A stretch of DNA of 64,000 bases from a virus. The notes below the pieces were generated by a model. It worked only from the letters and a program-made list of their open reading frames with translations, was not told the origin of the DNA and searched no databases. Each line of letters opens with the position of its first letter. Position 1 is the stretch's first letter. Of the stretch, positions 18,397-30,680 are shown in pieces. The stretch is from the IMG/VR virus record IMGVR_UViG_3300017971_000201, positions 1 through 64,000 of that record; one strand, 5' to 3'. The position numbers and the translations under genes were made by a program.

Positions 18397-18651
18397 GTGG
18401 GCGATCCGTTCTACTCGGTCCACTGCGTCGCCAAGATCGATGACGAGTTCGTCACCTACCGAGAGGTCTACCTCCTCGGACCGCAGTTCTGCGGAGGCGA
18501 GAAGCACGTGATCGCCAGGGTCTACCCGGAGGCCGAGCAGAATGCGCTGGCTGACGACAGTCGGCTGATGGGACTGCCGGAGGAGGTGAGGGAATTCCTC
18601 CGGTGGGCCGAGCGGAACGTCGTCTGTCCAGTCGTACGGCGGTCGGACTAG
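18397..18651 (+). CDS. Hypothetical protein
   Basis: ORF directly after rsr. Confidence 0.5.
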   Translation: MGDPFYSVHCVAKIDDEFVTYREVYLLGPQFCGGEKHVIARVYPEAEQNALADDSRLMGLPEEVREFLRWAERNVVCPVVRRSD

Positions 18652-19109
18652 GAACGTGGAGCCGACGCCGGACAGCCGCGAGTGGCGCGAGTACTGGCGC
18701 GAACGGGAGAAGAACCCCGAACAGCGCCGGGAGACGCGGCGCGAGAAGCGCGCGGCCCGGCGTCGGTTCCACAAGCGCTCGAGAAGTGCCGCAAGACGAT
18801 CTCTTCGAGAAACGTCTGGACAAACGGAAGACTCGATCTAGGATCAGCAGCGTGATCTGCATCCGCAGCACGAACGAGAACGATGAAGCGCCGCGAGCCC
18901 AAGACCGTGTGTCTGGCCCGCGTGAACGACGCGGGCGACATCCAGTGCGTCACCTCACCGATGACGCGCTCGGATGCGGAGGCTCTCCAGGAGCAGACGC
19001 GCTTCTCCACCCGGATAATCCCGAGAATACAAGCGGCGCGTAGGCGCGCCGGCCGAGATCTTCGGTCCCGCCTGCGCGCCTGAAGCCCGCCGGGAGCGAG
19101 CTTCACCCC

Positions 19110-19177
19110 GCCCCAGTCTGCGAGGCAGATCGCGATCTTGTACGTCGCGAGGCTCGGTGCGACTCCGAGCTGGGGCT
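19110..19177 (+). tRNA. Non-canonical tRNA-Thr(TGT)-like
   Basis: gccccag/ctggggc acceptor, minimal D arm, 7-bp anticodon stem with loop cttgtac. Confidence 0.6.
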
Positions 19178-19283
19178 TTTCTCAGAAACGATGACAGGTC
19201 TCCGGGCCTCAGTCGTAAGAGGGTCAGTCAAGACGAGGGCGCACCAACCGGCCTTGCTAGCCGGACCTGGGCGTCAACGCACA

Positions 19284-19296
19284 GCTGTTTGACAAC
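19284..19296 (+). promoter_or_regulatory. boxA-like antitermination site
   Basis: gctgtttgacaac just before the first canonical tRNA; repeated at 27312. Confidence 0.55.
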
Positions 19297-19307
19297 TCGC
19301 TGTCTTT

Positions 19308-19379
19308 GGGATCTTAGCTTAGGAAGTAGAGCGCCCGGCTGAAAACCGGAAGGCCCGAGTGCAACTCTCGGAGATCCCA
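19308..19379 (+). tRNA. tRNA-Phe(GAA)
   Basis: Cloverleaf; loop ctgaaaa. Confidence 0.9.
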
Positions 19380-19382
19380 TCT

Positions 19383-19457
19383 GGTCGCGTGGTGTAGCCA
19401 AGTCAACATGCCAGCCCGTCAAGCTGGAGATCGCGGGTGCGAATCCCGTCGCGACCG
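19383..19457 (+). tRNA. tRNA-Asp(GTC), C at position 33
   Basis: ccagc-ccgtcaa-gctgg. Confidence 0.85.
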
Positions 19458-19576
19458 TCATGGGAACCTGGCTGGTACCCAGAGGAGGAGCAGAGCGCTT
19501 CGCAAGAACAGGAGGTGACCTGGTGAGAGGTACGCTCACCGCAGAGGCGAATACCTAGGGTCGGAATCAACACCGA

Positions 19577-19648
19577 TCCTGGGATGCTCGATGGTCGAGT
19601 AGCCGCCTGTTAAGCGGAATGATGTGGGTTCGAGTCCCACCCCAGGAG
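19577..19648 (+). tRNA. tRNA-Asn(GTT)
   Basis: Loop ctgttaa; canonical TTC T loop. Confidence 0.85.
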
Positions 19649-19657
19649 TACAAACTC

Positions 19658-19695
19658 ACCGTCAGGTTCTCGGTGCGAATCCGAGGGGGTGAGCC
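19658..19695 (+). pseudogene. Orphan 3' half of a tRNA (Asn-like)
   Basis: accgtc-aggtt-ctcgg tgcgaat ccgag-ggggtga-g with no D arm upstream. Confidence 0.55.
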
Positions 19696-19697
19696 GC

Positions 19698-19769
19698 GCG
19701 TCGCAGGGAGATCAGTTCATCCGTCGGTCTGCAACACCGAAGAACCCGGTGCGACTCCGGGGCGGCGCT
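19698..19769 (+). tRNA. tRNA-Cys(GCA)
   Basis: tcggt-ctgcaac-accga; U73. Confidence 0.85.
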
Positions 19770-19772
19770 TCT

Positions 19773-19844
19773 AGGTCGCGCGCAAGGTACGCGGGCGGGT
19801 CTCCAAAACCTGCCGTCTGCTGGGTGCAAGTCCCAGGCGGCCTG
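19773..19844 (+). tRNA. tRNA-Trp(CCA)
   Basis: gcgggt-ctccaaa-acctgc; short D arm. Confidence 0.85.
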
Positions 19845-19846
19845 TC

Positions 19847-19914
19847 GTCCGAATGCCGTTCGAGTCTACATCTACCAACACGCTGTGACTCGGCAACAAC
19901 AACGTCGGACACCA
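19847..19914 (+). ncRNA. Short Y-RNA-like gene 1
   Basis: gtccgaatgcc...ctacatc...ggcaac...aacgtcggac-acca terminal stem. Confidence 0.7.
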
Positions 19915-19915
19915 T

Positions 19916-19988
19916 TGCCCCCTAGCTCAACTAGTAGAGTGCTTGGCTCTGAACCAAGAGGTTGTCGGTGCGAATCCGACGGGGGCTG
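19916..19988 (+). tRNA. tRNA-Gln(CTG)
   Basis: cttgg-ctctgaa-ccaag. Confidence 0.9.
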
Positions 19989-19992
19989 TCAT

Positions 19993-20068
19993 CGCGTGGT
20001 AGAGCAGTCAGGTTGTGCTCGCTGGGCTCATAACCCGGAGGTCGTAGGTTCGAATCCTACCCACGCTA
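19993..20068 (+). tRNA. tRNA-Met(CAT), initiator type
   Basis: 1:72 mismatch, GGG/CCC anticodon stem, loop ctcataa. Confidence 0.9.
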
Positions 20069-20072
20069 ACAA

Positions 20073-20146
20073 TGCGCGGTAGTCTAGTCAGGTACGACAC
20101 TGGGCTCATAACCCAGAGATTGCAGGTTCGAATCCTGTCCGCGCGA
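20073..20146 (+). tRNA. tRNA-Met(CAT), initiator type
   Basis: ctggg-ctcataa-cccag. Confidence 0.85.
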
Positions 20147-20151
20147 TCTGT

Positions 20152-20223
20152 TGCCCCCTAGCTCAAGAGTAGAGCGTCCGGCTTTGAACCGGAAGGTTGA
20201 GGGTGCGACTCCCTCGGGGGCTG
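20152..20223 (+). tRNA. tRNA-Gln(TTG)
   Basis: tccgg-ctttgaa-ccgga. Confidence 0.9.
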
Positions 20224-20275
20224 TCGGAACGCACGACCGGACGTTCCCTTTTCCCCTTTCGTCCCGTCGTGCTCT

Positions 20276-20346
20276 GGGGCATTGGTGAAACAGGATCACG
20301 CGGGCTTTGCAAGCCTGAATTGAGAGTGCGACTCTCTCATGCTCCA
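20276..20346 (+). tRNA. tRNA-Ala(TGC)
   Basis: G3:U70; loop tttgcaa. Confidence 0.9.
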
Positions 20347-20349
20347 TGC

Positions 20350-20420
20350 GGGCCATTCGTACAACAGCAGGACATCTCTCTTACAAGGAGAAGACGGGGG
20401 TGCGACTCCCTCATGGCCCA
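20350..20420 (+). tRNA. tRNA-Val(TAC)
   Basis: Loop cttacaa. Confidence 0.9.
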
Positions 20421-20429
20421 AAGGAACAC

Positions 20430-20501
20430 GCGGCCTTAGTTCCAGCAGCAGAACACCGGCTTGCCATGCCGGAGGCACGGGTGCAAATCCCGTAGGCCGC
20501 T
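20430..20501 (+). tRNA. tRNA-Gly(GCC)
   Basis: ccggc-ttgccat-gccgg. Confidence 0.9.
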
Positions 20502-20505
20502 TCAA

Positions 20506-20586
20506 CCGTCTGGGGTCCACCTAGTGGTGGTGCCGCGCTGTAAACGCGGTCCTTCGGGCAACGTGGTGCGAATCCACGCAGGCGGA
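20506..20586 (+). tRNA. tRNA-Tyr(GTA) with C1:G72
   Basis: ccgtctg/caggcgg acceptor; ccgcg-ctgtaaa-cgcgg; variable arm. Confidence 0.85.
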
Positions 20587-20651
20587 TCGGATCGCAAGCA
20601 GCACGGCAAGGTCCGGCTGGCCCGGTGAGCCCCACTGGGTATCCGGCGCAC

Positions 20652-20722
20652 GCGGCCTTGGCGTAGTAGTAACGCGTCAGCTTCCCAAGCTGACCGCACG
20701 GGTGCAACTCCCGTAGGCCGCT
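20652..20722 (+). tRNA. tRNA-Gly(CCC)
   Basis: tcagc-ttcccaa-gctga. Confidence 0.9.
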
Positions 20723-20726
20723 TCAA

Positions 20727-20801
20727 GCTCGGTTGGTGAAAGAGAATCACGCGAGGTTGTGGACCTCGAGTTCTACGGTGCGATTCCGAGACCGGGTACC
20801 A
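20727..20801 (+). tRNA. tRNA-His(GTG)
   Basis: cgagg-ttgtgga-cctcg; irregular T stem; encoded CCA. Confidence 0.8.
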
Positions 20802-20802
20802 A

Positions 20803-20874
20803 GCCCCCATGGCCTAACAGACAAGGCGCGTGGCTACGGACCATGAGATCCGGGTGCAACTCCTGGTGGGGGTA
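20803..20874 (+). tRNA. tRNA-Arg(ACG)
   Basis: cgtgg-ctacgga-ccatg. Confidence 0.9.
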
Positions 20875-20878
20875 TCGA

Positions 20879-20953
20879 CGGGCACGAGTCTCCAGATGAG
20901 CTGTCGCGCCTTATATGCGTAACGGCCGGGTGCAACTCCCGGGTGCCCTACCA
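20879..20953 (+). tRNA. tRNA with TAT anticodon (Ile-UAU-like)
   Basis: gggcac/gtgccc acceptor, gcgc-cttatat-gcgt, encoded CCA. Confidence 0.65.
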
Positions 20954-20984
20954 GCTCCGCTAGCCCAACAGCAGAGGCGCCGGT
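20954..20984 (+). pseudogene. 5' half of split short-arm tRNA-Leu
   Basis: gctccgc-ta-gcccaacagcagaggc-gccggt; D arm identical to tRNA-Leu(CAG) at 21771; acceptor pairs with gcggagc at 21681. Confidence 0.8.
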
Positions 20985-21012
20985 AGACAAAGCAGTAACG
21001 ACGCTGTAAAAC
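20984..21012 (+). promoter_or_regulatory. Sigma70-like promoter at left junction of HNH cassette
   Basis: TAGACA-17 nt-TAAAAC (preceded by TG), 6 nt before ATG. Confidence 0.5.
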
Positions 21013-21018
21013 AGAGGT

Positions 21019-21585
21019 ATGCGCAAAGAAATCTACCGTAGTCCCCCGCAGCAGATGCATGGTTATGTGGCCTACATCGTTCGCTACGACGACGGATTCA
21101 AGACCACGTTGTTCGAGCACCGGCTTGTGATGGAGCAACATCTAGGGAGGGCGCTACGGTCCGACGAAGTCGTTCATCACATAGATGGCGACAAGACAAA
21201 CAACGCGGCCGAGAACCTGGAACTTACTACTCCGTCGAAGCACGCGTCGAAGCACGCACGTCCGGCGCCGATAGTCGACCTGACCTGTCTGGTATGTGAG
21301 CGCTCGTTTGTCCGGCTAGCTCGGAAGGAACAGGAAAGGATCAGGCGTAGGAAGCGCGGCCCGTACTGCGGCAAGAAGTGCGCGGGGGTAGGTAGTCGCA
21401 AGCATCGTGGCAGGAAACGGGACAGCAAAGGCCGTATTCGATGTAGCGACTGCAAGCTCTTCCTACCAGAAGCAGAGTTTTGCAGGGAGCGCGGCAGGCC
21501 GGGTGGTCTGAGTTACAGGTGCAGATCCTGTAAGGCGGCCCAATTTCAATACAGGAAGAACAAGCAAGCCTCGGTGGCGGAATAG
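21019..21585 (+). CDS. HNH homing endonuclease with Zn fingers
   Basis: EHRLVMEQHLGRAL..EVVHHIDGDKTNNAAENLEL; CxxC pairs. Confidence 0.9.
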   Translation: MRKEIYRSPPQQMHGYVAYIVRYDDGFKTTLFEHRLVMEQHLGRALRSDEVVHHIDGDKTNNAAENLELTTPSKHASKHARPAPIVDLTCLVCERSFVRLARKEQERIRRRKRGPYCGKKCAGVGSRKHRGRKRDSKGRIRCSDCKLFLPEAEFCRERGRPGGLSYRCRSCKAAQFQYRKNKQASVAE

Positions 21586-21650
21586 CAGACGCGCTGGTCT
21601 CAAGAACCAGTGTCCGAAAGGACGTGTGGGTGCGAATCCCACCCGAGGCA
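21568..21650 (+). tRNA. tRNA-Leu(CAA), long variable arm, nested in split tRNA-Leu
   Basis: ctggt-ctcaaga-accag; overlaps the HNH stop codon. Confidence 0.9.
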
Positions 21651-21688
21651 AACACAGGAGGTTCCCAGTGCAAATCTGGGGCGGAGCA
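21651..21688 (+). pseudogene. 3' half of split tRNA-Leu
   Basis: acagg-aggtt-cccag tgcaaat ctggg-gcggagc-a. Confidence 0.8.
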
Positions 21689-21690
21689 AC

Positions 21691-21764
21691 GGTCCCGTAG
21701 CCCAATCAGCAGAGGTCCCGGCCTAAACCCAGGAACGGTCTCGGTGCAAATCCGAGGCGGAGCA
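21691..21764 (+). pseudogene. Chimeric/degenerate tRNA-Leu
   Basis: 5' ggtcccg does not pair with 3' gcggagc; D and T arms intact. Confidence 0.6.
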
Positions 21765-21770
21765 TCACAC

Positions 21771-21843
21771 GATCCTGTAGCCCAACAGCAGAGGCGCCGC
21801 ACTCAGGATGCGGAGGTTGTCGGTGCAAATCCGACCAGGATCA
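21771..21843 (+). tRNA. tRNA-Leu(CAG), short variable loop
   Basis: ccgca-ctcagga-tgcgg; 5-nt variable region. Confidence 0.9.
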
Positions 21844-21845
21844 TC

Positions 21846-21913
21846 GCTCGAATGCCGTCGTGGACTACATCCTGAACACATGACGTCTGCGGCAACACCA
21901 ACGTCGAGCACCA
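21846..21913 (+). ncRNA. Short Y-RNA-like gene 2
   Basis: gctcgaatgcc...gactacatc...ggcaac...aacgtcgagc-acca; co-varying stem relative to 19847. Confidence 0.7.
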
Positions 21914-21914
21914 C

Positions 21915-21997
21915 GCTGCCGTGGCGGAACAGCAGACGCGCCTGGTTGAGGGCCAGGTTCCCGAAAGGGAGTGGAGGTGCAACTCCTCTCGGCAGCA
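21915..21997 (+). tRNA. tRNA-Leu(GAG)
   Basis: cctgg-ttgaggg-ccagg; long variable arm. Confidence 0.9.
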
Positions 21998-22001
21998 TCT
22001 T

Positions 22002-22074
22002 GGGGTCGTGGCCAAGCAGTAAGGCGCCGCTCTGATAAGGCGGAGACTCGTGAGTGCAAATCTCACCGGCCCCA
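22002..22074 (+). tRNA. tRNA-Ile(GAT)
   Basis: ccgct-ctgataa-ggcgg. Confidence 0.9.
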
Positions 22075-22092
22075 TGCGACGATGAAGATCGA

Positions 22093-22656
22093 GTGAACGT
22101 CTCGCACAAGCATCGGTTCGTCTTCCTCGCGAACATGCGCACGGGCACGCGCTGCGTGTTCCACGCGCTTCGCCGCTACTTCGCTTGCATCGGCGGTAGC
22201 CACGATGCCAGGACGCTGACACACAAGATCGGCATCCCGGCCGGCTGCGAGCGCTACCTCGTGATCGCCACGGTGCGAAACCCGTTCAGCAGGATGGTCT
22301 CCTGCTGGAACTGGGTGCGCGAGGTTCCCGGCTGGCCGAGCGGGATCGACAAGTTCGTGCGAGCGAATCCGCACGACTTCGCCGGCTTCGTCGAGCGCGC
22401 GATGTCGACCGGCTTCGACTCCCAGTCGAGGCGCCTGGGCGAGATCGAGCCGGACCAGCTGATCCGCTACGAGCGGCTCCAGGCGAGCTTCAGCGAGCTG
22501 CCGTTCGTCACCGACGAGCAGCTCCACATCGTTCCGCAGAGCCCGATCACGGCCAACTGGCAGAGCTGGTACAGGCCGGAGATCGAGAAGATGGTGGCCG
22601 AGAAGTGGGCCGATGACTTCGATCGCTTCGGCTACCCGAAGGTCATTGGAAGGTGA
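22093..22656 (+). CDS. Sulfotransferase family 2 protein
   Basis: SHKHRFVFLANMRTGT, VRNPFSRMVS, IRYERL, WADDFDRFGY. Confidence 0.8.
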   Translation: MNVSHKHRFVFLANMRTGTRCVFHALRRYFACIGGSHDARTLTHKIGIPAGCERYLVIATVRNPFSRMVSCWNWVREVPGWPSGIDKFVRANPHDFAGFVERAMSTGFDSQSRRLGEIEPDQLIRYERLQASFSELPFVTDEQLHIVPQSPITANWQSWYRPEIEKMVAEKWADDFDRFGYPKVIGR

Positions 22657-22734
22657 ACCGGACAAGCGAACCGGAGCGGCCTGCTAAGTCGTCTGTCCCC
22701 TTCGGGGGATGTGGTGCAAGTCCACCTCCTTCCG
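22648..22734 (+). tRNA. tRNA-Ser(GCT), 8/4 fold
   Basis: cggc-ctgctaa-gtcg; ggaaggtg/ctccttcc acceptor; 4-bp T stem. Confidence 0.85.
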
Positions 22735-22887
22735 TTCGAGCAAGCACTGCCCTCTGTGGCCCGGTGCTCGTCGCGTCGAGCTGTTCGCTAGATCGGTCGT
22801 TCCCGGATGGTGCTGCTACGGCAGCGAGATCGGATCAATGATAGTTCCTCGTGGCGTCAGGAAGATCAGCTAAGAGAGGAGGAGGCT

Positions 22888-23463
22888 ATGGGCCTTCTAG
22901 TGGACGACCCTTGCCTCGTCCTCAACAGATCCTGGCAGGTAGTGGGGTTTCTCCCGATCGGGACCTGCATCGCCACTGTCATGCGCGATATGGCCTCGAT
23001 CATGTGCCCGACGTCGTACTTCCTCATGGACCTGGACGAGTGGATCGACAGAGCTGAGACTGACAGGTTCATCAAGACAGCCAGCACTCCGATCCCGGCG
23101 CCCGAGGTGATCGTACTGAAGAAGTACGGCGAGAGGCCCCCGCGCAAGGTGAGCTTCAACCGCCCGAACCTCTACAGACGGGACGAGCACACCTGCCAGT
23201 ACTGTGGCGAGGAACTCCCGCCCAAGAACCTCACGATCGATCACGTGCTACCGAGATCGAAGGGAGGTCCCACGACCTGGGAGAACACGGTGGCAGCCTG
23301 CCGCTCGTGCAACCAGAGGAAGGCCGACAAGACCACTGACGAGGCGCGTATGAAGCCTCGGAAGAAGCCCGCCGCCCCACGCTGGACACCTGGAGTCAGG
23401 ATCCCGCGAGGCGAGGTCAGGGCTAGCTGGGAGCCATTCCTGGCGAAGGAGCGGGTCGCCTAG
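22888..23463 (+). CDS. HNH endonuclease (McrA-like, tRNA-array associated)
   Basis: LVLNRSW, RDEHTCQYCG, TIDHVLPRSKGG, WENTVAACRSCNQRK; ggagg RBS. Confidence 0.9.
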   Translation: MGLLVDDPCLVLNRSWQVVGFLPIGTCIATVMRDMASIMCPTSYFLMDLDEWIDRAETDRFIKTASTPIPAPEVIVLKKYGERPPRKVSFNRPNLYRRDEHTCQYCGEELPPKNLTIDHVLPRSKGGPTTWENTVAACRSCNQRKADKTTDEARMKPRKKPAAPRWTPGVRIPRGEVRASWEPFLAKERVA

Positions 23464-23481
23464 GAGGCCCGTCTCCGCCCC

Positions 23482-23565
23482 GGAGCCGAGAACCTGGGGT
23501 AGTCCTGGGGCTCGCTTGGAAAGCGATGCGTTCTTCGGATTGGAGTGCGACTCTCCCCGGCTCCG
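23482..23565 (+). tRNA. tRNA-Ser(GGA)
   Basis: tcgc-ttggaaa-gcga; 4-bp T stem. Confidence 0.8.
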
Positions 23566-23573
23566 TGCTTGCT

Positions 23574-23783
23574 ATGATCGGCGCTGTGAAAAGCAAGATC
23601 GAAGTAGGCGAAACGGTACTTAGAGCGACGCTTGGATCCAGCGGTGATCTAGTTGTCGTCTCGGGTATCGAATCAGACAACGGCGTGGTCACCCGCTACC
23701 TGGTTAAGCCTGTAGCTCAACCAGACAGCGAGCCTGAACTAGTTCCTGCTGATCTGATTCACAGCCTACGCAAACGCCCCTGA
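23574..23783 (+). CDS. Small hypothetical protein
   Basis: Lower-GC ORF between tRNAs. Confidence 0.45.
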   Translation: MIGAVKSKIEVGETVLRATLGSSGDLVVVSGIESDNGVVTRYLVKPVAQPDSEPELVPADLIHSLRKRP

Positions 23784-23811
23784 AGCAGAAGCAGTGCTGC
23801 GCCTGCCTCGT
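23776..23811 (+). pseudogene. 5' half of split tRNA-Thr(CGT)
   Basis: gcccctg-aa-gcag..ctgc-g-cctgc-ct-cgt. Confidence 0.75.
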
Positions 23812-23892
23812 CGCTCTGGGTGGGCGCAGAGACGAGAATTGTCAGACGTCTTTATCGCACCATGTTCTGTGCTCAGGTAAAGCCCGGAACAA

Positions 23893-23963
23893 GCTCCTGT
23901 AGTTCAACAGCAGAATGCCTCTCTCGTAAGGAGGAGACGCGGGTGCAATTCCCGCCGGGAGCT
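23893..23963 (+). tRNA. tRNA-Thr(CGT), nested in split tRNA-Thr(CGT)
   Basis: cctct-ctcgtaa-ggagg. Confidence 0.9.
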
Positions 23964-23976
23964 TCAGCCTCAGATC

Positions 23977-24015
23977 CGTAAGCAGGAGAACCCGGTGCGA
24001 CTCCGGGCGGGAGTA
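23977..24015 (+). pseudogene. 3' half of split tRNA-Thr(CGT)
   Basis: cgt-aa-gcagg-agaa-cccgg tgcgact ccggg-cgggagt-a. Confidence 0.75.
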
Positions 24016-24019
24016 TCAA

Positions 24020-24091
24020 GCTCGCGTCGTCCAACAGATAGGATACGAGCCTCCGAAGCTCGAGATCTGGGTGCGACTCCCAGCGCGGGTA
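24020..24091 (+). tRNA. tRNA-Arg(CCG)
   Basis: cgagc-ctccgaa-gctcg. Confidence 0.9.
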
Positions 24092-24166
24092 TACAGGATG
24101 GACCCAGCTCCGGCTGGGGTAAATAGCGGCTGGCTGCACACCATCCTCATCAGTCAGTCGCGCCAA

Positions 24167-24240
24167 CAGGGCGTGGCGCAGTCTAGCAGCGCGTTGGTCT
24201 GGGGGACCAAAGGTCGTGGGTGCGAATCCCACCGCCCTGA
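24167..24240 (+). tRNA. tRNA-Pro(GGG)
   Basis: ttggt-ctggggg-accaa. Confidence 0.9.
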
Positions 24241-24267
24241 TCAGGAACGGGCAGACCCGTTCCGCTT

Positions 24268-24338
24268 GCCCTGATAGCTTAGTAGCAGAGCACTCGCTTG
24301 GTACGCGAGAGATCCCGGTGCGACTCCGGGTCAGGGCT
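24268..24338 (+). tRNA. tRNA-Thr(GGT)
   Basis: ctcgc-ttggtac-gcgag. Confidence 0.9.
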
Positions 24339-24343
24339 TAGAC

Positions 24344-24631
24344 ATGGCGAAGCTACGACGAGAGAAGCTGCCGGACGGAACCGACGCCGGCCTGCTGTCG
24401 TTCCAGTGTCCAGGCTGTGGCGCGCGCCACGCCTTCCGCATCATGTTCGACCCGGACCTGCCCGAAGAGCAGGTATGGTCGTGGAACGGCGACATGGACG
24501 GGCCGACGTTCGACCCAGCGCTGAAGGCCCCAGGCTGCCACCTCCGGTGCGTCGAGGGCAAGCTGCACTTCTTCGTCGACTCGGGGCACAAGCTCGCCGG
24601 CCGGCTCGTGGACCTGCCCGACGAGCTGTGA
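24344..24631 (+). CDS. DUF6527-like Zn-binding protein
   Basis: FQCPGCGARH, WSWNGDMDGPTFDP, CH, DSGHKLAG. Confidence 0.7.
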   Translation: MAKLRREKLPDGTDAGLLSFQCPGCGARHAFRIMFDPDLPEEQVWSWNGDMDGPTFDPALKAPGCHLRCVEGKLHFFVDSGHKLAGRLVDLPDEL

Positions 24632-24632
24632 C

Positions 24633-24818
24633 GTGGCCGATTGCGATCACGAGTGGGAGGAGATCCACCACTACGGCGAGGATCTCGAGGGCCGGCTGAT
24701 CCACTACTGCCCGACCGGCTTCAAGTGGTGCAGGCTCTGCCGCAGGGTCGAAGACGAAGACAACCCCCAGTGCCATCTCTGGGGCGAACCAGATCCGATA
24801 CAACCCGCAGACACGTAG
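24633..24818 (+). CDS. Small Cys/His protein
   Basis: CDHEW...WCRLC. Confidence 0.45.
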   Translation: MADCDHEWEEIHHYGEDLEGRLIHYCPTGFKWCRLCRRVEDEDNPQCHLWGEPDPIQPADT

Positions 24819-24872
24819 AGTGGGCTCGCTCTCATAAGGCGATGCAAGACGGTGCAAGCCCGTCCTGCGGGA
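24804..24872 (+). tRNA. tRNA-Met/Ile2(CAT), elongator type with reduced D arm
   Basis: cccgcag/ctgcggg; tcgct-ctcataa-ggcga. Confidence 0.7.
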
Positions 24873-24876
24873 TCAT

Positions 24877-24913
24877 GGAACGTGAACCGGACAAGCGTGC
24901 CGGGCCGGTCTCG
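24877..24913 (+). pseudogene. 5' half of split tRNA-Ser(CGA)
   Basis: ggaacgtg-aa-ccggacaagcgtgccgg-gc-cggt-ct-cg; near-identical to the 5' end of Ser(GCT) at 22648. Confidence 0.85.
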
Positions 24914-24944
24914 CGCTACGATCCCGTCAATTACGGGGTGCATC

Positions 24945-25559
24945 ATGCCGGGCAAACGGCGACCGGACCTGAGAGAACGGGCCATCAACCTGCGGTGCAA
25001 GCAGAAGCTCGGCAGGAACGAGATTGCGCGTTGCCTTGGAGGGCTGGTGAGCCCTGTAACTGTTGGCCGGTGGTTGCGGAACCACCCGCTCCGTAAGAAC
25101 GAGGAGCGGCGGGTTCGCGAGACTGCCATCAAGAAAAGGCGCCCACGGCAACCGAAGCAGCCGAGAGTTCACTGCGAGGTCTGCGGAAAGAAGTGCAGTC
25201 GCGGGGCGAAGCGTTTTTGCTCTGATTGCGCGGTCGGACGAGTACGAAGTCCCAGACGAGAACCGACACAGCGTTACCTCGTCGAAGACAGGCTGGTCAA
25301 CTCGACGCGCCTCAAGACAAGACTCATCGAGGAGGGTTATCTAGAGGATCGTTGCGGCAAGTGCGGTTCGTTGCCGGAGTGGAACGGTGAGCCGCTCAAC
25401 CTCCAGCTGGATCACATCGACGGAAACCGTAGGAACAATCTTCTCAGCAACCTTCGGATTGTTTGTCCCAATTGCCACTCGCAGACGCCGACCTACGCTG
25501 CCAGGAATCGCAGGAATCCGAAGAGGTCGAGAAGGAAGCCGCGTTACGCGCACGAATGA
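24945..25559 (+). CDS. HNH homing endonuclease with N-terminal HTH
   Basis: CGKCG..EWNGEPLNLQLDHIDGNRRNNLLSNLRIVCPNCHSQT. Confidence 0.9.
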   Translation: MPGKRRPDLRERAINLRCKQKLGRNEIARCLGGLVSPVTVGRWLRNHPLRKNEERRVRETAIKKRRPRQPKQPRVHCEVCGKKCSRGAKRFCSDCAVGRVRSPRREPTQRYLVEDRLVNSTRLKTRLIEEGYLEDRCGKCGSLPEWNGEPLNLQLDHIDGNRRNNLLSNLRIVCPNCHSQTPTYAARNRRNPKRSRRKPRYAHE

Positions 25560-25563
25560 AATT

Positions 25564-25653
25564 GGAGAGCGTCCGGCTAGACGAGGAGCACGTCTCGAAA
25601 ACGTGTAGGGCGTACGTAAGTGCGTCTTCAGGGTGCGAGTCCCTGGCTCTCCG
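25564..25653 (+). tRNA. tRNA-Ser(CGA), canonical 7/5 fold, nested
   Basis: cacgt-ctcgaaa-acgtg; ggagagc/gctctcc. Confidence 0.9.
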
Positions 25654-25667
25654 TAGGAGCGGGAAGA

Positions 25668-25715
25668 CGAAAACCGTGCGTCCTTCGGGTTGGGGTGCAA
25701 CTCCTCCGCGTTCCG
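25668..25715 (+). pseudogene. 3' half of split tRNA-Ser(CGA)
   Basis: cga-aa-accg-variable arm-gggg tgcaact cctc-cgcgttcc-g. Confidence 0.85.
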
Positions 25716-25718
25716 TCA

Positions 25719-25791
25719 CAGGGTGTAGCTTAGGAGCAAAAGCGCCGCGTTCGGGACGCGGAGAGCGTGGGTGCGAGTCCCACCACCCTGA
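25719..25791 (+). tRNA. tRNA-Pro(CGG)
   Basis: ccgcg-ttcggga-cgcgg. Confidence 0.9.
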
Positions 25792-25815
25792 TCAACCATG
25801 AGGTAGAACATCTGC

Positions 25816-26262
25816 ATGAACGAACCCGAATGGTGCGCTCTCTGCGCGGACGCTCCGGCCGTCGGCCGGCTCTTTCCAGTGGTCTACCTCACGCAGGATG
25901 AGGTGAAGTCGGAGCGCCCGCTGCCGAGACACGAGACTCGCTGCTGCGCGCGGTGCGGGAACCAGGCGTCCGACAGCTTCGTTGACGAGAACTTCGAGAC
26001 CGGCCGGATGGCTGTACTCCAGTTCGAGCACGACGACTTCGCGAAGGTCTCCGAGAAGCGGATCCTCGAGCTGGTCGGTCAGCTCGAGAACGCGCAGTGC
26101 TCGCTGTGCGGTAAGAAGATGGAGAACGACCCGGATGCCATGCCGGCGCGTCCGCTGGCCGAGAAGCTGCTCCGGGAGCATCCGAACATGAAGTACGTGA
26201 CAGCAGTGTGCGCCGACTGCGCGCCGAGCTGCCCGTGCTGCGACGAAGAAGAGAACAACTAG
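25816..26262 (+). CDS. Multi-CxxC Zn-finger protein
   Basis: Four CxxC pairs plus CPCC. Confidence 0.65.
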   Translation: MNEPEWCALCADAPAVGRLFPVVYLTQDEVKSERPLPRHETRCCARCGNQASDSFVDENFETGRMAVLQFEHDDFAKVSEKRILELVGQLENAQCSLCGKKMENDPDAMPARPLAEKLLREHPNMKYVTAVCADCAPSCPCCDEEENN

Positions 26263-26333
26263 GGGCAGTAGCTCAATAGGAGAGCGCCTCGTTCGCAACG
26301 AGGAGGTTGTCGGTGCGACTCCGATCTGCTCCA
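26262..26333 (+). tRNA. tRNA-Ala(CGC)
   Basis: cctcg-ttcgcaa-cgagg. Confidence 0.9.
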
Positions 26334-26334
26334 T

Positions 26335-26422
26335 GAAGGCGTGACGAATCAGCGTCGTGGCTCGCGAGTGCGTTACGGAACTTGGGATCGTCGGGCTCCG
26401 GGTGCAACTCCCGGCGTCTTCA
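26335..26422 (+). ncRNA. tRNA-like RNA without a canonical anticodon arm
   Basis: gaaggcg/cgtcttc acceptor, D hairpin gacg/cgtc, T arm ccggg-tgcaact-cccgg. Confidence 0.55.
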
Positions 26423-26426
26423 TCAA

Positions 26427-26499
26427 GGGGCCTTAGCTCAGTTAGGAGAGCGCCGATCTGGCAGGTCGGAGGTCACGAGTGCGAATCTCGTAGGCTCCA
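26427..26499 (+). tRNA. tRNA-Ala(GGC)
   Basis: ccgat-ctggcag-gtcgg. Confidence 0.9.
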
Positions 26500-26500
26500 T

Positions 26501-26583
26501 GGAAGGTGATCTCGGCCAGCTGCCGAGCGCGGTTTTGAAAACCGATGGAGCTTCGGCTTGGGGTGCAACTCCTCCGCCTTCCG
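26501..26583 (+). tRNA. tRNA-Ser(TGA), 8/4 fold
   Basis: cggt-tttgaaa-accg; ggaaggtg/cgccttcc. Confidence 0.85.
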
Positions 26584-26584
26584 T

Positions 26585-26668
26585 GGGCTTCTACCGGAGA
26601 CCCAGTTCATGAGCGTGGTGGCCGGGCTCGCTAGCAGGGCGGGGTTCGATTCCCTCTGGAGGCTCCCA
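26585..26668 (+). ncRNA. tRNA-like element (T arm plus terminal stem)
   Basis: gggcttcta/tggaggctc stem, gggg-ttcgatt-ccct, ends cca. Confidence 0.4.
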
Positions 26669-26670
26669 AA

Positions 26671-26744
26671 GGGCGCGTAGCTCAGTTAGTCAGAGTGCCT
26701 CGGTGACATCGAGGAAGTCCTGGGTGCGAATCCCAGCGTGCCCA
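26671..26744 (+). tRNA. tRNA-Val(GAC)
   Basis: cctcg-gtgacat-cgagg. Confidence 0.9.
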
Positions 26745-26832
26745 TCGCAACTCGCGCGAGCGAGTCTGTGATGGTGGAGTGCGTCCGGTCTTCCGGTCGC
26801 CCCCGGCCGAGCCCCTCCCGGCTCGGCCACCT

Positions 26833-26903
26833 GGCCCCACGGTCTAGTAGCAAGATGCGAGTCTTTCACGCTCGAGAGGAGGGTGCGATTCCCTCTGGGG
26901 TCA
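26833..26903 (+). tRNA. tRNA-Glu(TTC)
   Basis: cgagt-ctttcac-gctcg. Confidence 0.9.
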
Positions 26904-26964
26904 TCGGCGATCCGCGCGACCGGCGGATGTAAGCGAGGCCACGCGCGGCCCCGCCCCAGCTCAC

Positions 26965-27035
26965 GCGGACGTACGTCAACAGCAGACTGTCGGGCTTCCA
27001 ACCCGTCGATGCCGGTGCAAATCCGGTCGTCCGCT
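26965..27035 (+). tRNA. tRNA-Gly(TCC)
   Basis: cggg-cttccaa-cccg. Confidence 0.85.
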
Positions 27036-27039
27036 TCCT

Positions 27040-27109
27040 GCCCCCGGCAGAGAGGCAGCCGGCTCTTCTAAAGCTGGCCTTCCCGGTGCGACTCCGGGCG
27101 GGGGTACCA
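27040..27109 (+). tRNA. Non-canonical tRNA-Arg(TCT)-like
   Basis: gcccccg/cgggggt, no clear D stem, 7-bp stem gccggct-cttctaa-agctggc, encoded CCA. Confidence 0.65.
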
Positions 27110-27110
27110 C

Positions 27111-27182
27111 GGGTCTGTGGTGTAACAGGAGCACACTCGGCTTTTACCCGAGGCGGTCAGGGTGCGAATCCCTGCGGACCCA
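27111..27182 (+). tRNA. tRNA-Lys(TTT)
   Basis: ctcgg-cttttac-ccgag. Confidence 0.9.
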
Positions 27183-27241
27183 TGAAACTTCCTTGCGGTT
27201 GTCGGCCGCAGGGTATAACCAAGACAGCGAGTGAAGGAGTC

Positions 27242-27306
27242 GTGCCGGTCCGAAGCCGATCCGTTTTCCCCACTTTCCCCCTTTAGGAAAAGCAACTGGC
27301 CGGCGC
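27242..27306 (+). ncRNA. Y-RNA-like gene, animal-Y-like architecture
   Basis: gtgccggtc-cgaag ... polypyrimidine loop ... ctggccggcgc. Confidence 0.7.
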
Positions 27307-27311
27307 GCTCC

Positions 27312-27324
27312 GCTCTTTGACAAC
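27312..27324 (+). promoter_or_regulatory. boxA-like antitermination site
   Basis: gctctttgacaac upstream of tmRNA. Confidence 0.6.
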
Positions 27325-27340
27325 TCGGGCACGAACACAC

Positions 27341-27689
27341 GGGGCTGACATGGCATCGACCGGGTCAGTGAATCTCGTGCTGCGTGTAGAGGTCCCCGGT
27401 TGGCCTCTCTAAACAACCGGGAAACTGAACAATTGCCAACGCACCTGTTCGCCTGGCAGCCTAAAAAGGCCGCCCCCAGCTGGATCCCCCGCCCATGGGG
27501 TGAAAGATCTGGGCCATAAGATGGGCTGGTCCCGCGCTGGAGTCTCAGCGGCAACGGACGAGAAACTACTGCGACGCCCCACGACCAGCATCCTGCTCTC
27601 GGTCTGGTCGCGGGTAAGCTCGAGAGCTACGCACGTAGACGCACGAAGGGATCGACTACGGGACCGGGGTTCGATTCCCCGCAGCTCCA
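27341..27689 (+). ncRNA. ssrA: tmRNA
   Basis: 5' ggggctga..gg.atcgac; tag ORF 27435-27464 = ANAPVRLAA*; 3' gaccggggttcgattccccgcagctcca. Confidence 0.95.
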
Positions 27690-27699
27690 GGTATCTCCA

Positions 27700-27728
27700 T
27701 TGAGCATCTCTCCTCCGCTCCATACAAT
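27700..27728 (+). promoter_or_regulatory. Sigma70-like promoter
   Basis: TTGAGC-17 nt-TACAAT followed by ggagg RBS. Confidence 0.6.
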
Positions 27729-27746
27729 CGGATCGGAGGTGCCGAG

Positions 27747-28352
27747 ATGCCCACAATGGAGACGATCGAGTGCGCCAGCTGCGGCCAGTCGGTTGAGAAG
27801 CCGCTCGGCGAGGTCACTCGATCGAAGAAGCTCGGCAGACCGATGTTCTGCGGTCTGTCGTGCTCGGCAACGCACAGGAACGCGACCAGAAAGGCGCGCG
27901 AGTTCGAGATGACCTGCGAGTGCGGTGAGGTGTTCACCACCACGACGCGCAACAAGGCCAAGCGTCACTGTTCGCGCTCATGTGCGAGCAGATTCTCGAT
28001 GACCAGAAGACGCCGGTCAGCGCAGCGCGCGGCCGGCAAGAAGCACAAGCAGAACCTCGACACAGCCAAGGCTATGAGGTCGCGAGAGGCTTGGAAGTAC
28101 TCGCTGCTGCGAGAAGAGTTGGGAGACCGGCCACATGAGTTCGAGTTCGAGCTTGGCGGTCGCATTTTCGACCTAGCCCTTCTCGACACCAAGATGCTGG
28201 TCGAGTTCGACGGTCCTAGTCATCGTGAAGGCCGACAACGGATGGAAGACGGAGCGAAAGACAAGCTCGCCGCCAAACTAGGATGGCGAGTCGTTCGACG
28301 GGAGGTGAAGCGGGCGACCGTGATCCACCCCTCGACGATCGAGGACTTGTAG
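27747..28352 (+). CDS. Zn-finger + DUF559/Vsr-like endonuclease
   Basis: Two CxxC..FC/HC.xxC repeats; FDLAL..LVEFDGPSH..D..KD..GWRVVR. Confidence 0.8.
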   Translation: MPTMETIECASCGQSVEKPLGEVTRSKKLGRPMFCGLSCSATHRNATRKAREFEMTCECGEVFTTTTRNKAKRHCSRSCASRFSMTRRRRSAQRAAGKKHKQNLDTAKAMRSREAWKYSLLREELGDRPHEFEFELGGRIFDLALLDTKMLVEFDGPSHREGRQRMEDGAKDKLAAKLGWRVVRREVKRATVIHPSTIEDL

Positions 28353-28375
28353 GGGTTCGATTCCCGCCAGCTCCA
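28352..28375 (+). repeat. Displaced duplicate of tmRNA 3' end
   Basis: ggggttcgattcccgccagctcca vs ggggttcgattccccgcagctcca at 27666-27689. Confidence 0.85.
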
Positions 28376-28379
28376 TCGA

Positions 28380-28453
28380 CGCGCGGTGGGCTAATCCGGT
28401 ACGCCGCCGGGCTCATAACCCGGAGACTGGGGGTTCGAATCCCTCCCGCGCTA
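28380..28453 (+). tRNA. tRNA-Met(CAT), initiator type
   Basis: ccggg-ctcataa-cccgg; 1:72 mismatch. Confidence 0.85.
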
Positions 28454-28480
28454 TCCCCTCTCGTCGATCACGATGTCGGC

Positions 28481-28603
28481 CGGCGGCCGAATGAACTGAC
28501 GGGAGTACATCAGTGAGCGCAGGCTCCTCTAGGTAACCTGGACTCGGCAGGGCTAGGAGGAGCCGACAACCCGGCGGCGTGACCGCAAGCTCTCACGTCG
28601 CCG
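28481..28603 (+). ncRNA. Y-RNA-like gene (longer, non-tRNA effector domain)
   Basis: cggcggccgaatg..ggagtacatc ... cacgtcgccg. Confidence 0.55.
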
Positions 28604-28641
28604 ACCAGGCGGTCGTGGGTGAGATCCCCGCGACCGTCATA

Positions 28642-28715
28642 GGACCGAATGCTCCGGCGGGACTACATCTTGAGGAGACGTTTCGTCTCGCTGACCCCAC
28701 AACGTCGGTCCACTA
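28642..28715 (+). ncRNA. Short Y-RNA-like gene 3
   Basis: ggaccgaatgc..gggactacatc ... caacgtcggtcc. Confidence 0.7.
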
Positions 28716-28721
28716 GAACAA

Positions 28722-28876
28722 CCCACGAATGCCTTGGGAGACTACATCCTGCAAGCCGGTGTCCGAATGGACGTGCGGGTTCGAGTCCCGCCCGGCCGCC
28801 TCGACGGCCGGTGGCGGAATGGTAGACGCGCCGGAGGTGGAGACACCATGAAGTCCCCCGCCCCTTACGTCGTGGG
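28722..28876 (+). ncRNA. yrlA: YrlA-type Y RNA (permuted tRNA mimic)
   Basis: cccacgaatgcc..gactacatc; then variable arm, T arm gcggg-ttcgagt-cccgc, loop-closed acceptor ccggccg/cggccgg, D arm tggcggaatggtagacgc; 3' acgtcgtggg closes the terminal stem. Confidence 0.85.
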
Positions 28877-28898
28877 CTCCACACAACACGTGCTAGGG

Positions 28899-29375
28899 AT
28901 GTACCTGTTCGGCTTCATCGTCGAAGACGACAAGACGCTGACCCCTGGTCTGATGGAGCGGATCGTGTCCGAGGAGAATCGCAGCGTGGTGGACATCCTC
29001 GCGGACATCGGCAAGACGCCGAAGGAGATCCGCCAGCTGATGCGCGAGACCGCCGAAGACATGGCGAGATGGTGCCTGCGCACGCACGTGCGTCCGGTCG
29101 ATGCCCGACACCGGATCCACGCCGCTGCGATGTCCGTCTTGAAGGGCCGGCGCTTCTCGGGAGCCTCCCCGAAGAGGTCGGCCGACAAGATGGTCTCGAG
29201 GATCATGTGCGACTACGAGCGCGACTACGGTAACTGGCTCGCCAGGGTGCGGCGCGAGCGAGCCCGGCAGGAGCGCGACGGCGAAGCCTACGTCCCCTGG
29301 CAGCAGCGTCATGCCAAGCAGCGTGCCGACGAACTCAAGAAGCGGTGGAAGGGCCGGCGGCGCGGGAAGCGATGA
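28899..29375 (+). CDS. Hypothetical protein
   Basis: ORF starting MYLFGFIV. Confidence 0.55.
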   Translation: MYLFGFIVEDDKTLTPGLMERIVSEENRSVVDILADIGKTPKEIRQLMRETAEDMARWCLRTHVRPVDARHRIHAAAMSVLKGRRFSGASPKRSADKMVSRIMCDYERDYGNWLARVRRERARQERDGEAYVPWQQRHAKQRADELKKRWKGRRRGKR

Positions 29376-29656
29376 GGAACCGCATCCAGAAGAACGATCG
29401 CGTCATCCTGGTGGACAACAGGATCCACCCGGAGATTCCGAACGGCACGCGCGGATGGGCCTACCACATCGCTACGATGATGGGCGGTGACGTATACGTG
29501 CGGTGGACCGATCGCTCGCCAGATGGCAGTTGCATCGATGACTGCTACTTCCCGCAGAGCTGCCTGGACCATCTGAGTGCTGTCGATCGGCTGGCAGAGC
29601 TGGTCAGCGCTGACCTGGGGTCGGGGAACACAGGTCCCCCAAGTGTTCTCCCATAA
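29372..29656 (+). CDS. Small SH3-like protein with SAVDRL motif
   Basis: DRVILV..GTRG..VYVRW..LDHLSAVDRLAELV. Confidence 0.6.
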   Translation: MRNRIQKNDRVILVDNRIHPEIPNGTRGWAYHIATMMGGDVYVRWTDRSPDGSCIDDCYFPQSCLDHLSAVDRLAELVSADLGSGNTGPPSVLP

Positions 29657-29706
29657 ACCTAGATTTTTCCGACAGGAGGAGCTAGGCTCTCGGTAGAGCT
29701 TGACCC

Positions 29707-29925
29707 ATGAGCCGCTCCGATGTAGTTGCTGCGAGCCTCGCTGCCACGTGCTCCGTCTGTGGGGAGACCCACCCGGAGGAATTCGAGGAGCGGTTCCGCG
29801 CGATTCTGGCCCAGGACCCGGCGCTCGCGTCTGATCCTGATGTCCAGTGGATCTTCACGTGCGGATCCTGCTCCGCCAAGGGTTTATGCCCGTGCTGCCA
29901 GGGCTCCCAGCAGGGAGCCGCCTAA
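29707..29925 (+). CDS. Small Zn-finger protein
   Basis: CSVC..CGSC..CPCC, like the C-terminus of 25816-26262. Confidence 0.55.
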   Translation: MSRSDVVAASLAATCSVCGETHPEEFEERFRAILAQDPALASDPDVQWIFTCGSCSAKGLCPCCQGSQQGAA

Positions 29926-29929
29926 GCAC

Positions 29930-30004
29930 GGACGCGTGGCCCAACGGCAGGAGGCTAACCACTTAAAATGGTTGAAGTTGTGGGTTCGACTCCCACCGCG
30001 TCCA
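29930..30004 (+). tRNA. tRNA-Leu(TAA), short variable region
   Basis: aacca-cttaaaa-tggtt; canonical GG/TTC elbow. Confidence 0.85.
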
Positions 30005-30332
30005 TTCCGGCCCTCTGAGGCCCTCTACGACGGGCAGGTATCAGGAGCCACGACCCCTACCGATCGTCCCGCCACGGGCCTCCACGGGCCGTACGATGGC
30101 GATCTGCTCCGCCTCGAGCATCATGCTCACTGCGTCACGGTGCTGTGGGGCAAGGCCGTCGGTCAGGTGGCGCCAGCGCTCCACGACCCTGGCGGTCCAG
30201 CCATCCGGGTCATCGTACCTGAGCACTCGATCGGCCGCCGGACCGTCCGGGTCGGCTATGGCCGCCAGACGATTGCCGACGCGGTTTGACCGAAGCGCAG
30301 GCCGAAGCCGGCGATCTTGGCGGTCGCGTAGT

Positions 30333-30680
30333 TCATTCTCCGCCGGCCAGGGCCGCCGCCTCCATGACGGCCGCTATGGCCATGACCGAGAGTGCCGCCG
30401 TCTCTTCTGTCTCTTCCTCCTCGATGATGCCGTCGGCGGCGGCGAGCCTGTCGGCCACCTCGCGCGCCGAGTGTAGATCGCCGGACACGACAGCCGATTC
30501 GAGGAGCAGACGCAGCCGATCCATCCCGCGATTGGCGATCTTGCGCTCGGTCAGCACGGTCGGATGATCATCGCTGAGCCCGGCGGCCAGCTGTGTCTCG
30601 AGCCGCAGACGAGACCGGGCGATCCTCTTGGCGAAGTAGGCGATGTCGTCGATGGCGCTGGCGCTGGGGATCTCGCTCAT
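30333..30680 (-). CDS. Hypothetical protein
   Basis: ORF with ggagg RBS. Confidence 0.55.
   Translation of the reverse strand: MSEIPSASAIDDIAYFAKRIARSRLRLETQLAAGLSDDHPTVLTERKIANRGMDRLRLLLESAVVSGDLHSAREVADRLAAADGIIEEEETEETAALSVMAIAAVMEAAALAGGE

Follow-up and report, generated by a model that had tools for sequence, protein, structure and literature searches.

How does a phage come to carry a tRNA-Thr(CGT) gene lodged inside the anticodon of another tRNA-Thr(CGT) gene, and which of the two still serves it? The question is raised by the tRNA array of an uncultured giant phage, for which we analysed the first 64 kb (hereafter the window) of a 159.7-kb IMG/VR record estimated to be 58% complete. 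Between 19.1 and 30.0 kb the window holds an array of approximately 36 tRNA genes and a tmRNA, with several HNH genes scattered through it. The codon ACG accounts for approximately 39% of the Thr codons in this phage by codon count, and a Thr(CGT) function is therefore needed. Megablast and blastn searches of the phage collection returned no match. The split layout recurs letter for letter (100% identity) in four other independent assemblies (L071-L074), which rules out a misassembly. Samples containing this phage are Logan SRR6963591 and SRR14699966, the runs underlying ENA ERZ27256783 and ERZ27256798, and JGI 3300028840.

The features of the locus are collected in Table 1. A first-pass annotation, made from the letters of the DNA, had described a 5' half ending cctgc-ct-cgt and a 3' half starting cgt-aa-gcagg, with the anticodon duplicated between them, and an insert of roughly 165 nt that holds an intact tRNA-Thr(CGT) and no endonuclease ORF. 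This description was borne out throughout. The sequence reads as stated and eight relatives carry the outer gene unbroken; the insert measures 165 nt (23812-23976) and is composed of 81 unique nt, the intact tRNA-Thr(CGT), which both ARAGORN and Rfam (60 bits) recognise, and a 12-nt spacer; and the sole ORF of the insert (23820-23981, 53 aa) reads through the inner tRNA and has no PHROG match, leaving the insert without any ORF similar to a nuclease. The outer gene, which we term Thr_a, reads GCCCCTG AA GCAG AAGCAGTG CTGC G CCTGC CT CGT in its 5' half (23776-23811) and CGT AA GCAGG AGAA CCCGG TGCGACT CCGGG CGGGAGT A in its 3' half and tail (23977-24015), and GCAGG of the 3' half can form five of five pairs with CCTGC of the 5' half.

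Table 1. Features of the split tRNA-Thr locus and of two related cassettes in the same array (positions in the window)
Feature	Position	Strand	Content or basis
Thr_a 5' half, predicted pseudogene fragment	23776..23811	+	acceptor 5' strand, D arm, anticodon-stem 5' strand, loop through anticodon CGT
Left CGT of the 3-nt direct repeat (anticodon)	23809..23811	+	comparison with eight uninterrupted genes
Left part of insert, 81 nt, unique sequence including hairpin	23812..23892	+	similarity, fold, Rfam and promoter checks
Inner intact tRNA-Thr(CGT)	23893..23964	+	ARAGORN 23892-23965; Rfam 23893-23963, 60 bits, E 2e-12
12-nt spacer, inner tRNA to right junction	23965..23976	+	read from sequence
Thr_a 3' half	23977..24007	+	anticodon CGT, AA, anticodon-stem 3' strand GCAGG, variable loop AGAA, T arm
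Arg(CCT)-derived tail, CGGGAGT + A	24008..24015	+	acceptor 3' strand and discriminator fused to Thr_a T arm
HNH + tRNA-Leu insert	20954-21688		same array
HNH + tRNA-Ser(CGA) cassette	24877-25715		1 kb downstream of the Thr locus

The outer halves are hard to recognise as a tRNA with standard programs. ARAGORN called no tRNA in the joined halves because their last 8 nt are foreign, and the generic Rfam tRNA model, applied to the isolated halves of this family with an odd D loop, scored the 3' half at only 13 bits and gave no hit to the 5' half. Evidence for a split tRNA therefore had to be sought in relatives. One of these, G002/L045 with a complete genome of 275 kb, was reached through the Ro60 gene that lies upstream of the array. 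Contigs L075, L076, L078, L079 and L081 were found with the conserved HNH gene at 22807-23463, and L082 and L084 with a degenerate pattern for the Thr_a 5' half. An unbroken Thr_a was present in all eight related contigs (G002/L045, L075, L076, L078 (=L083), L079, L081, L082 and L084), in each case as a 72-73-nt tRNA-Thr(CGT), and neither a split gene nor a longer insert was found in any of the eight. In G002, L075, L076, L078, L079 and L081 the gene is positioned between a Ser(GGA)-like gene and tRNA-Arg(CCT), while the gene arrangement around it differs in L082 and L084. The 5' half in the window is in synteny with these genes, a Ser(GGA)-like gene preceding it and Arg(CCG) following.

These intact genes are missed by ARAGORN because their D loop lacks GG, and the copy in G002 scores 45 bits with Rfam. 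When the family was compared with the cloverleaf, 97% of cells were paired and compensatory changes were observed at 15 of 21 pairs, a number that none of 500 shuffles reached. Further queries added little: a strict pattern for the 5' half recovered only G002, again an empty site, whether run on IMG/VR or on the JGI metagenomes; no match was obtained with an exact 3'-half pattern; and protein-anchored searches with the small ORF described below and with a DUF6527 gene gave no useful relatives. The 17-nt joined anticodon arm, used as a query, gave no matches other than to an unrelated repeat and to Thr(CGT) genes of the ordinary bacterial type, and contig L029, which has an acceptor sequence in common with the locus and yet is not related, was rejected as a relative.

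Comparison with the intact alleles connects the two outer halves to a single gene. Once joined, they are 86% identical to the Thr_a of L075, the closest intact copy (about 89% over positions 1-65), and 81% identical to that of L076. The 5' half aligns with the intact 5' halves of L081 and L075 at 81-83% identity and, across the whole 159.7-kb genome, is the best match to the 5' half in G002 (25/36, with the next match at 21/36). The 3' half (23977-24007) is identical to L075 at 30 of 31 nt, including all 21 nt of the variable loop and T arm. The anticodon stem of Thr_a differs between almost all of the phages (CCTCT/GGAGG, ACGCT/GGCGT, CCTGA/TCAGG, CCGGT/ACCGG and CGGCT/AGCTG), and the stem pair CCTGC/GCAGG, which pairs perfectly, is private to the window phage among the phages compared. 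Both halves therefore descend from one gene copy, which until the split was intact and under selection.

The spacer between the Ser(GGA)-like gene and Thr_a, which consists of 0-130 non-coding nt in the relatives, is filled only in the window phage, by a small ORF (23574-23783, 69-85 aa) without a Pfam or PHROG match. Its C-terminus reads PADLIHSL, and its stop codon is located within the dead Thr_a acceptor stem, such that the first 8 nt of the 5' half overlap it. The neighboring Ser(GGA)-like gene (23482-23565) has a long arm and is called in the window by neither ARAGORN nor Rfam; it is homologous to L075 2212-2289 (81%) and, judged by eye, is built like the tRNA-Ser(GGA) called by ARAGORN at the syntenic position of L076. 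Because the annotated start of the small ORF (23526) falls within this tRNA, 23574 is more likely to be its true start.

At the split point the eight uninterrupted genes read YT CGT AM, and both breakpoints in the window fall on the same 3 nt, the right copy of CGT being located at 23977-23979. This repeat represents either a target-site duplication or microhomology at the junctions. Terminal inverted repeats were not found at the two insert ends, which carry the 3-nt direct repeat CGT; a 9-nt inverted repeat with 1 mismatch at the left junction (I4) is at chance level. The locus is a presence/absence polymorphism with base-exact junctions, for which eight empty sites can be set against one filled lineage. 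Taken with the origin of the inner gene, which is considered next, an insertion into Thr_a and its replacement by a divergent tRNA-Thr(CGT) is well supported by sequence comparison.

All four stems of the inner tRNA-Thr(CGT) are fully paired, and the gene has a 7-nt D loop (AACAGCA), the pairs G1-C72 and C2-G71, and the discriminator T73. The identity elements of ThrRS, as established for E. coli, are G1-C72, C2-G71, G35 and U36; read directly from the sequence, the inner tRNA satisfies both the cloverleaf and these positions, and it is presumably the working Thr(CGT) gene of the phage. It shows 72% identity to the outer gene and 57-74% identity to the six intact Thr_a alleles compared. Its best overall match is instead a Thr(GGT) gene in L081 (79% identity), to which its D arm (TA GTTC AACAGCA GAAT) is identical at 17 of 17 positions. 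Because of this D arm, together with the Thr-type C72 and T73, we assign the inner gene to the Thr(GGT) type, with C34, and to a lineage other than Thr_a. A MAFFT alignment to the Arg(CCG) gene of G002 had suggested an anticodon-shifted Arg(CCT) or Arg(CCG) gene as its source, a candidate that was rejected given the Thr-type C72 and T73, the D arm of Thr(GGT), and the fact that Arg(CCT) alleles were not among the best matches. A loop-only pattern for the inner tRNA recovered no relative from IMG/VR.

The outer gene also bears the mark of a second event. All eight intact alleles end in GGGGC + T (YNGGGGC T), unlike the CGGGAGT A in the window, which matches the Arg(CCT) 3' end of G002 and L076 at every base. 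Beyond it, into Arg(CCG), the window also matches G002 and L075, and the T arm in the window is identical to that of the L076 Arg(CCT) at 16 of 17 positions. The Arg(CCT) gene itself is absent from the phage record. The presence of an Arg(CCT) end and the absence of the remainder of that gene together point to a deletion from T arm to T arm, which would have taken Thr_a positions 66-73, the spacer, and Arg(CCT) positions 1-65. With an Arg-derived 3' strand, the outer acceptor contains a C3xA70 mismatch, U72 and A73. Because its last 8 nt come from the deleted Arg(CCT), the outer gene is best regarded as a decaying pseudogene that is no longer maintained and is not spliced. Arg(CCT) genes are present in G002, L075, L076, L078, L079, L081 and L082, and AGG still accounts for approximately 10% of the Arg codons in the phage that lacks one.

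No coding or RNA function was detected in the 81 nt that precede the inner gene. DNA similarity searches within the phage's own genome (G000) or G002 gave only chance-level short matches (best E 1.5), six-frame translation likewise gave chance-level matches only, with no nuclease remnant detectable, and neither an Rfam family nor a promoter-like site was found. The first-pass annotation had singled out a hairpin in this part, GGGCGCAGA/TCTGTGCTC. It is indeed present, but it has no relatives and is not conserved, and the RNA fold is not unusual, with z = -0.9 for the 81 nt and -1.0 for the whole 240 nt; the hairpin is real yet unremarkable in both stability and conservation. Three points are thereby newly recognised here: that the inner gene is no duplicate of the outer gene, that the tail is derived from Arg(CCT), and that the hairpin is statistically ordinary.

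Other tRNA genes of the array and of its relatives show oddities of their own. For example, the T loop reads T-G-C-R-A, with G at the normally universal U/psi55 position, in 153 of 165 ARAGORN calls counted over window positions 19100-30000, L045, L075, L076, L078, L079 and L081. Each of the 9 tRNAs that have the normal TTC loop retains a GG in its D region, and 96 of those with TGC are without any GG; it looks like the elbow between D loop and T loop co-varies and has been rewired in this phage family. A long variable arm is the mark of bacterial tRNA-Leu, and the tRNAs with Leu anticodons are often only 72-75 nt with a short variable arm (window 21771-21843; L045 14814-15106; L078, L079 and L081). 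Directly after tRNA-Asn lies an orphan tRNA 3' fragment (19649-19697, T arm at 19669), which looks like the deletion remnant of a second Asn copy because G002 has two tandem Asn genes at this site. Finally, ARAGORN missed tRNA-like genes with odd D arms at 20879-20953, 24803-24873 and 27040-27110. At least the first two, a gene with a TAT loop that ends in ACCA and a gene with a CAT anticodon, are conserved in G002. The last precedes tRNA-Lys, in a gap that is equally long in G002, and might represent the acceptor part in a two-piece tmRNA call.

An indication of what might have opened Thr_a comes from the two cassettes listed at the foot of Table 1. The Thr insert resembles the Ser and Leu cassettes in its plan, which consists of a 5' half, the insert with a tRNA of the same anticodon in the rightmost position, a spacer of 12-14 nt, and a restarted 3' half. 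In the Ser cassette the replacement tRNA is positioned at the right end and is followed by a 14-nt spacer, the 5' half ends within the anticodon, and the 3' half restarts at the first anticodon base; its left junction reads CTCG/CGCT as compared to CTCGT/CGCT at the Thr locus. Both inserts start with CGCT, and both targets have the loop CT-CG-N-AA. They differ in that the Ser and Leu inserts contain an HNH gene of approximately 200 codons, at 24945-25559 in the Ser cassette and at 21019-21585 in the Leu cassette, whereas the Thr insert has its 81 nt, which show no similarity to the Ser or Leu cassettes past the first four bases, CGCT.

The Leu-type 5' half (GCTCCGC TA GCCC AACAGCA GAGG C ..GGT) occurs both in the window (20954-20985) and in L045 (14716-14747), with the break at an identical position. 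Behind it the window has the HNH gene, Leu(CAA) and the 3' half; in G002 it is followed by 68 nt and a different short-arm Leu(CAA), with no HNH gene and no 3' half in the stretch read. The Leu split may therefore be older and common to both phages, with a nuclease lost or gained, and a 5' half stranded in the HNH-less G002 implies that such shells can persist without a nuclease.

These comparisons show that a segment of approximately 162 bp, made up of 81 unique nt, a complete Thr(GGT)-type gene with C34, and 12 nt, entered the anticodon (C34-T36) of the resident Thr_a and in doing so duplicated the three bases CGT. The resident gene was destroyed by this insertion and the reading of ACG passed to the incoming gene. 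The dead halves have drifted since, and the Thr_a 3' end was lost, along with nearly all of Arg(CCT), by a deletion that ran from one of their near-identical T arms to the other. As the most likely cause we envisage a site-specific endonuclease making a staggered cut in the anticodon region, as proposed for the Ser and Leu cassettes, with the break healed by taking up or copying a cassette whose divergent replacement tRNA remained uncut. The nuclease gene might since have been lost from the Thr element, or it might never have been present, the nuclease being supplied in trans; in either case the element of today would be an immobile scar with a working tRNA inside.

We consider the chances that a nuclease initiated this splitting and replacement, at a locus that is now nuclease-free, to be evenly balanced. 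The first-pass annotation had proposed the end stage of a homing cycle after nuclease loss, or a non-autonomous element. The splitting of the anticodon by a tRNA-bearing insert stands, while a former homing cassette that lost its nuclease is suggested by analogy to the HNH-bearing Ser and Leu cassettes and by nothing else. The relatives that it proposed to look for, with the same junctions and a longer, nuclease-coding insert, did not appear in IMG/VR, in the JGI metagenome contigs, or in the contigs examined from the large protein collection, and the two pattern scans for the Thr_a 5' half gave empty sites only; the insert is found in one lineage only and spread was not observed. A still more specific proposal places the Thr element, as a non-autonomous member, in a family of tRNA cassettes that split and replace, each landing in the anticodon of its own isoacceptor; the element would be mobilised, or would have been founded, by HNH enzymes of the array acting on CT-CG-N-AA loops, as found in Ser(CGA) and Thr(CGT). 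This we regard as unlikely, though worth stating.

The account that competes most directly with nuclease-initiated replacement dispenses with the enzyme. Nuclease-independent illegitimate recombination, in the form of a random break or a replication template switch at the anticodon loop, may have captured the Thr(GGT)-type gene of a co-infecting relative along with its flanks, joined through CGT or CGTA microhomology at the junctions, with the product surviving by keeping a working Thr(CGT). A 3-nt junction repeat is what would be expected of microhomology-mediated joining, and homology-driven homing itself makes no target duplication, such that the CGT repeat points to an illegitimate founding event for which no dedicated nuclease is needed. 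tRNA arrays are also rich in short common motifs, the insert has neither a nuclease nor a nuclease remnant, and this array has been rearranged elsewhere, as evidenced by the Asn 3' fragment, the Arg(CCT) deletion and the stranded Leu 5' half. In addition, there is a weak resemblance between the 12-nt spacer and the bases that follow Thr(GGT) in relatives such as G002, although this likeness is not statistically significant and was discarded as a lead. However, the anticodon-exact hit, the replacement by a gene of the same anticodon, and the HNH-bearing Ser(CGA) counterpart would all be coincidence under such a capture, and a donor context was not found. We therefore view illegitimate capture as possible but somewhat doubtful.

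Two other explanations treat the inner and outer sequences as parts of one history. An ordinary tandem duplication of tRNA-Thr(CGT) with subsequent decay of the flanking copies, which the first-pass annotation had itself named as the scenario opposed to its own, could draw on the 47-nt direct repeat (74% identity) that the outer 3' half forms with the 3' portion of the inner gene and on the fact that tRNA arrays do duplicate, as in the Asn-Asn pair of G002. Yet the inner and outer genes are 72% identical whereas the outer gene is 86% identical to its orthologue in another phage, and their D arms differ in type (8-nt AAGCAGTG versus 7-nt AACAGCA). Moreover, two deletions would need, independently, to have stopped at the same three bases, a private compensatory stem unites the 5' and 3' fragments, and the eight relatives have a single gene rather than a tandem pair. 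Given an inner gene of another lineage and both breakpoints on the same three bases, we set the duplication aside as highly improbable. Scarcely any credence can be given to the idea that the insert is an intron or split-tRNA spacer removed from the RNA, with the outer tRNA still being made. The site is indeed the anticodon loop, as for bacterial group I and archaeal tRNA introns, and a 6-7-bp helix can be drawn by eye between the insert ends. However, Rfam revealed no intron family (E<=1 over 18500-30500 and E<=10 over 23400-24100), the fold of the 240 nt is ordinary as noted above, and both RtcB (PF01139) and the tRNA-splicing endonuclease (PF01974) are absent from the 159.7-kb record, at its 58% completeness. 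The outer acceptor 3' strand, furthermore, has been replaced by that of an Arg tRNA, and ARAGORN rejects the joined halves.

The locus, with its eight empty sites, base-exact junctions and later decay, provides a clean and dated example of a tRNA gene that has been supplanted at its own site by a different one. It illustrates isoacceptor recruitment across anticodons, from a GGT type to CGT, as well as gene loss from an array via recombination between T arms, and it suggests that in such cassettes the 'replacement' part persists longer than any nuclease does. Should the link to a nuclease be real, phage tRNA arrays would owe their shape to selfish elements that make good the loss of the gene they destroy, a strategy distinct from that of introns and inteins; a full-text literature search found no published description of it, or of nested replacement tRNA genes in phages. 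If a family of HNH-mobilised cassettes does exist, it would constitute a main route of tRNA array turnover in phages, here from a Thr(GGT)-type gene to Thr(CGT).

Known elements that use tRNA genes as targets share individual features with the Thr insert. Integrative elements with tRNA-att sites likewise target a tRNA gene and leave a tRNA fragment at the flank, but the Thr insert has no integrase, does not rebuild the 3' end of its target, is bordered by a repeat of only 3 nt, and brings a complete separate gene. Group I tRNA introns are, like the Thr insert, located in the anticodon loop and vary in presence and absence among relatives. Unlike them, the insert has no intron core and carries a whole tRNA gene, and the flanking 'exons' give no valid tRNA, the gene being replaced rather than spliced. 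SegB of phage T4 is a free-standing GIY-YIG homing endonuclease encoded in the T4 tRNA gene cluster (PMC2330249; see also PMC13096335). Part of its recognition site is the T-psi-C stem-loop sequence conserved in tRNA genes, and its homing takes neighboring tRNA genes along while markers of the recipient are lost. SegB is a published precedent for the recognition of tRNA-gene sequence by endonucleases in the tRNA clusters of phages (PMC2330249). It is located between genes, has a T-arm target and splits no tRNA gene, whereas the Thr element lies inside the gene it replaces and carries the replacement gene but no nuclease. Both nonetheless pose the question of selfish DNA inside a phage tRNA array, and intron-less homing of the SegB type in tRNA clusters is the closest published system to the replacement described here.
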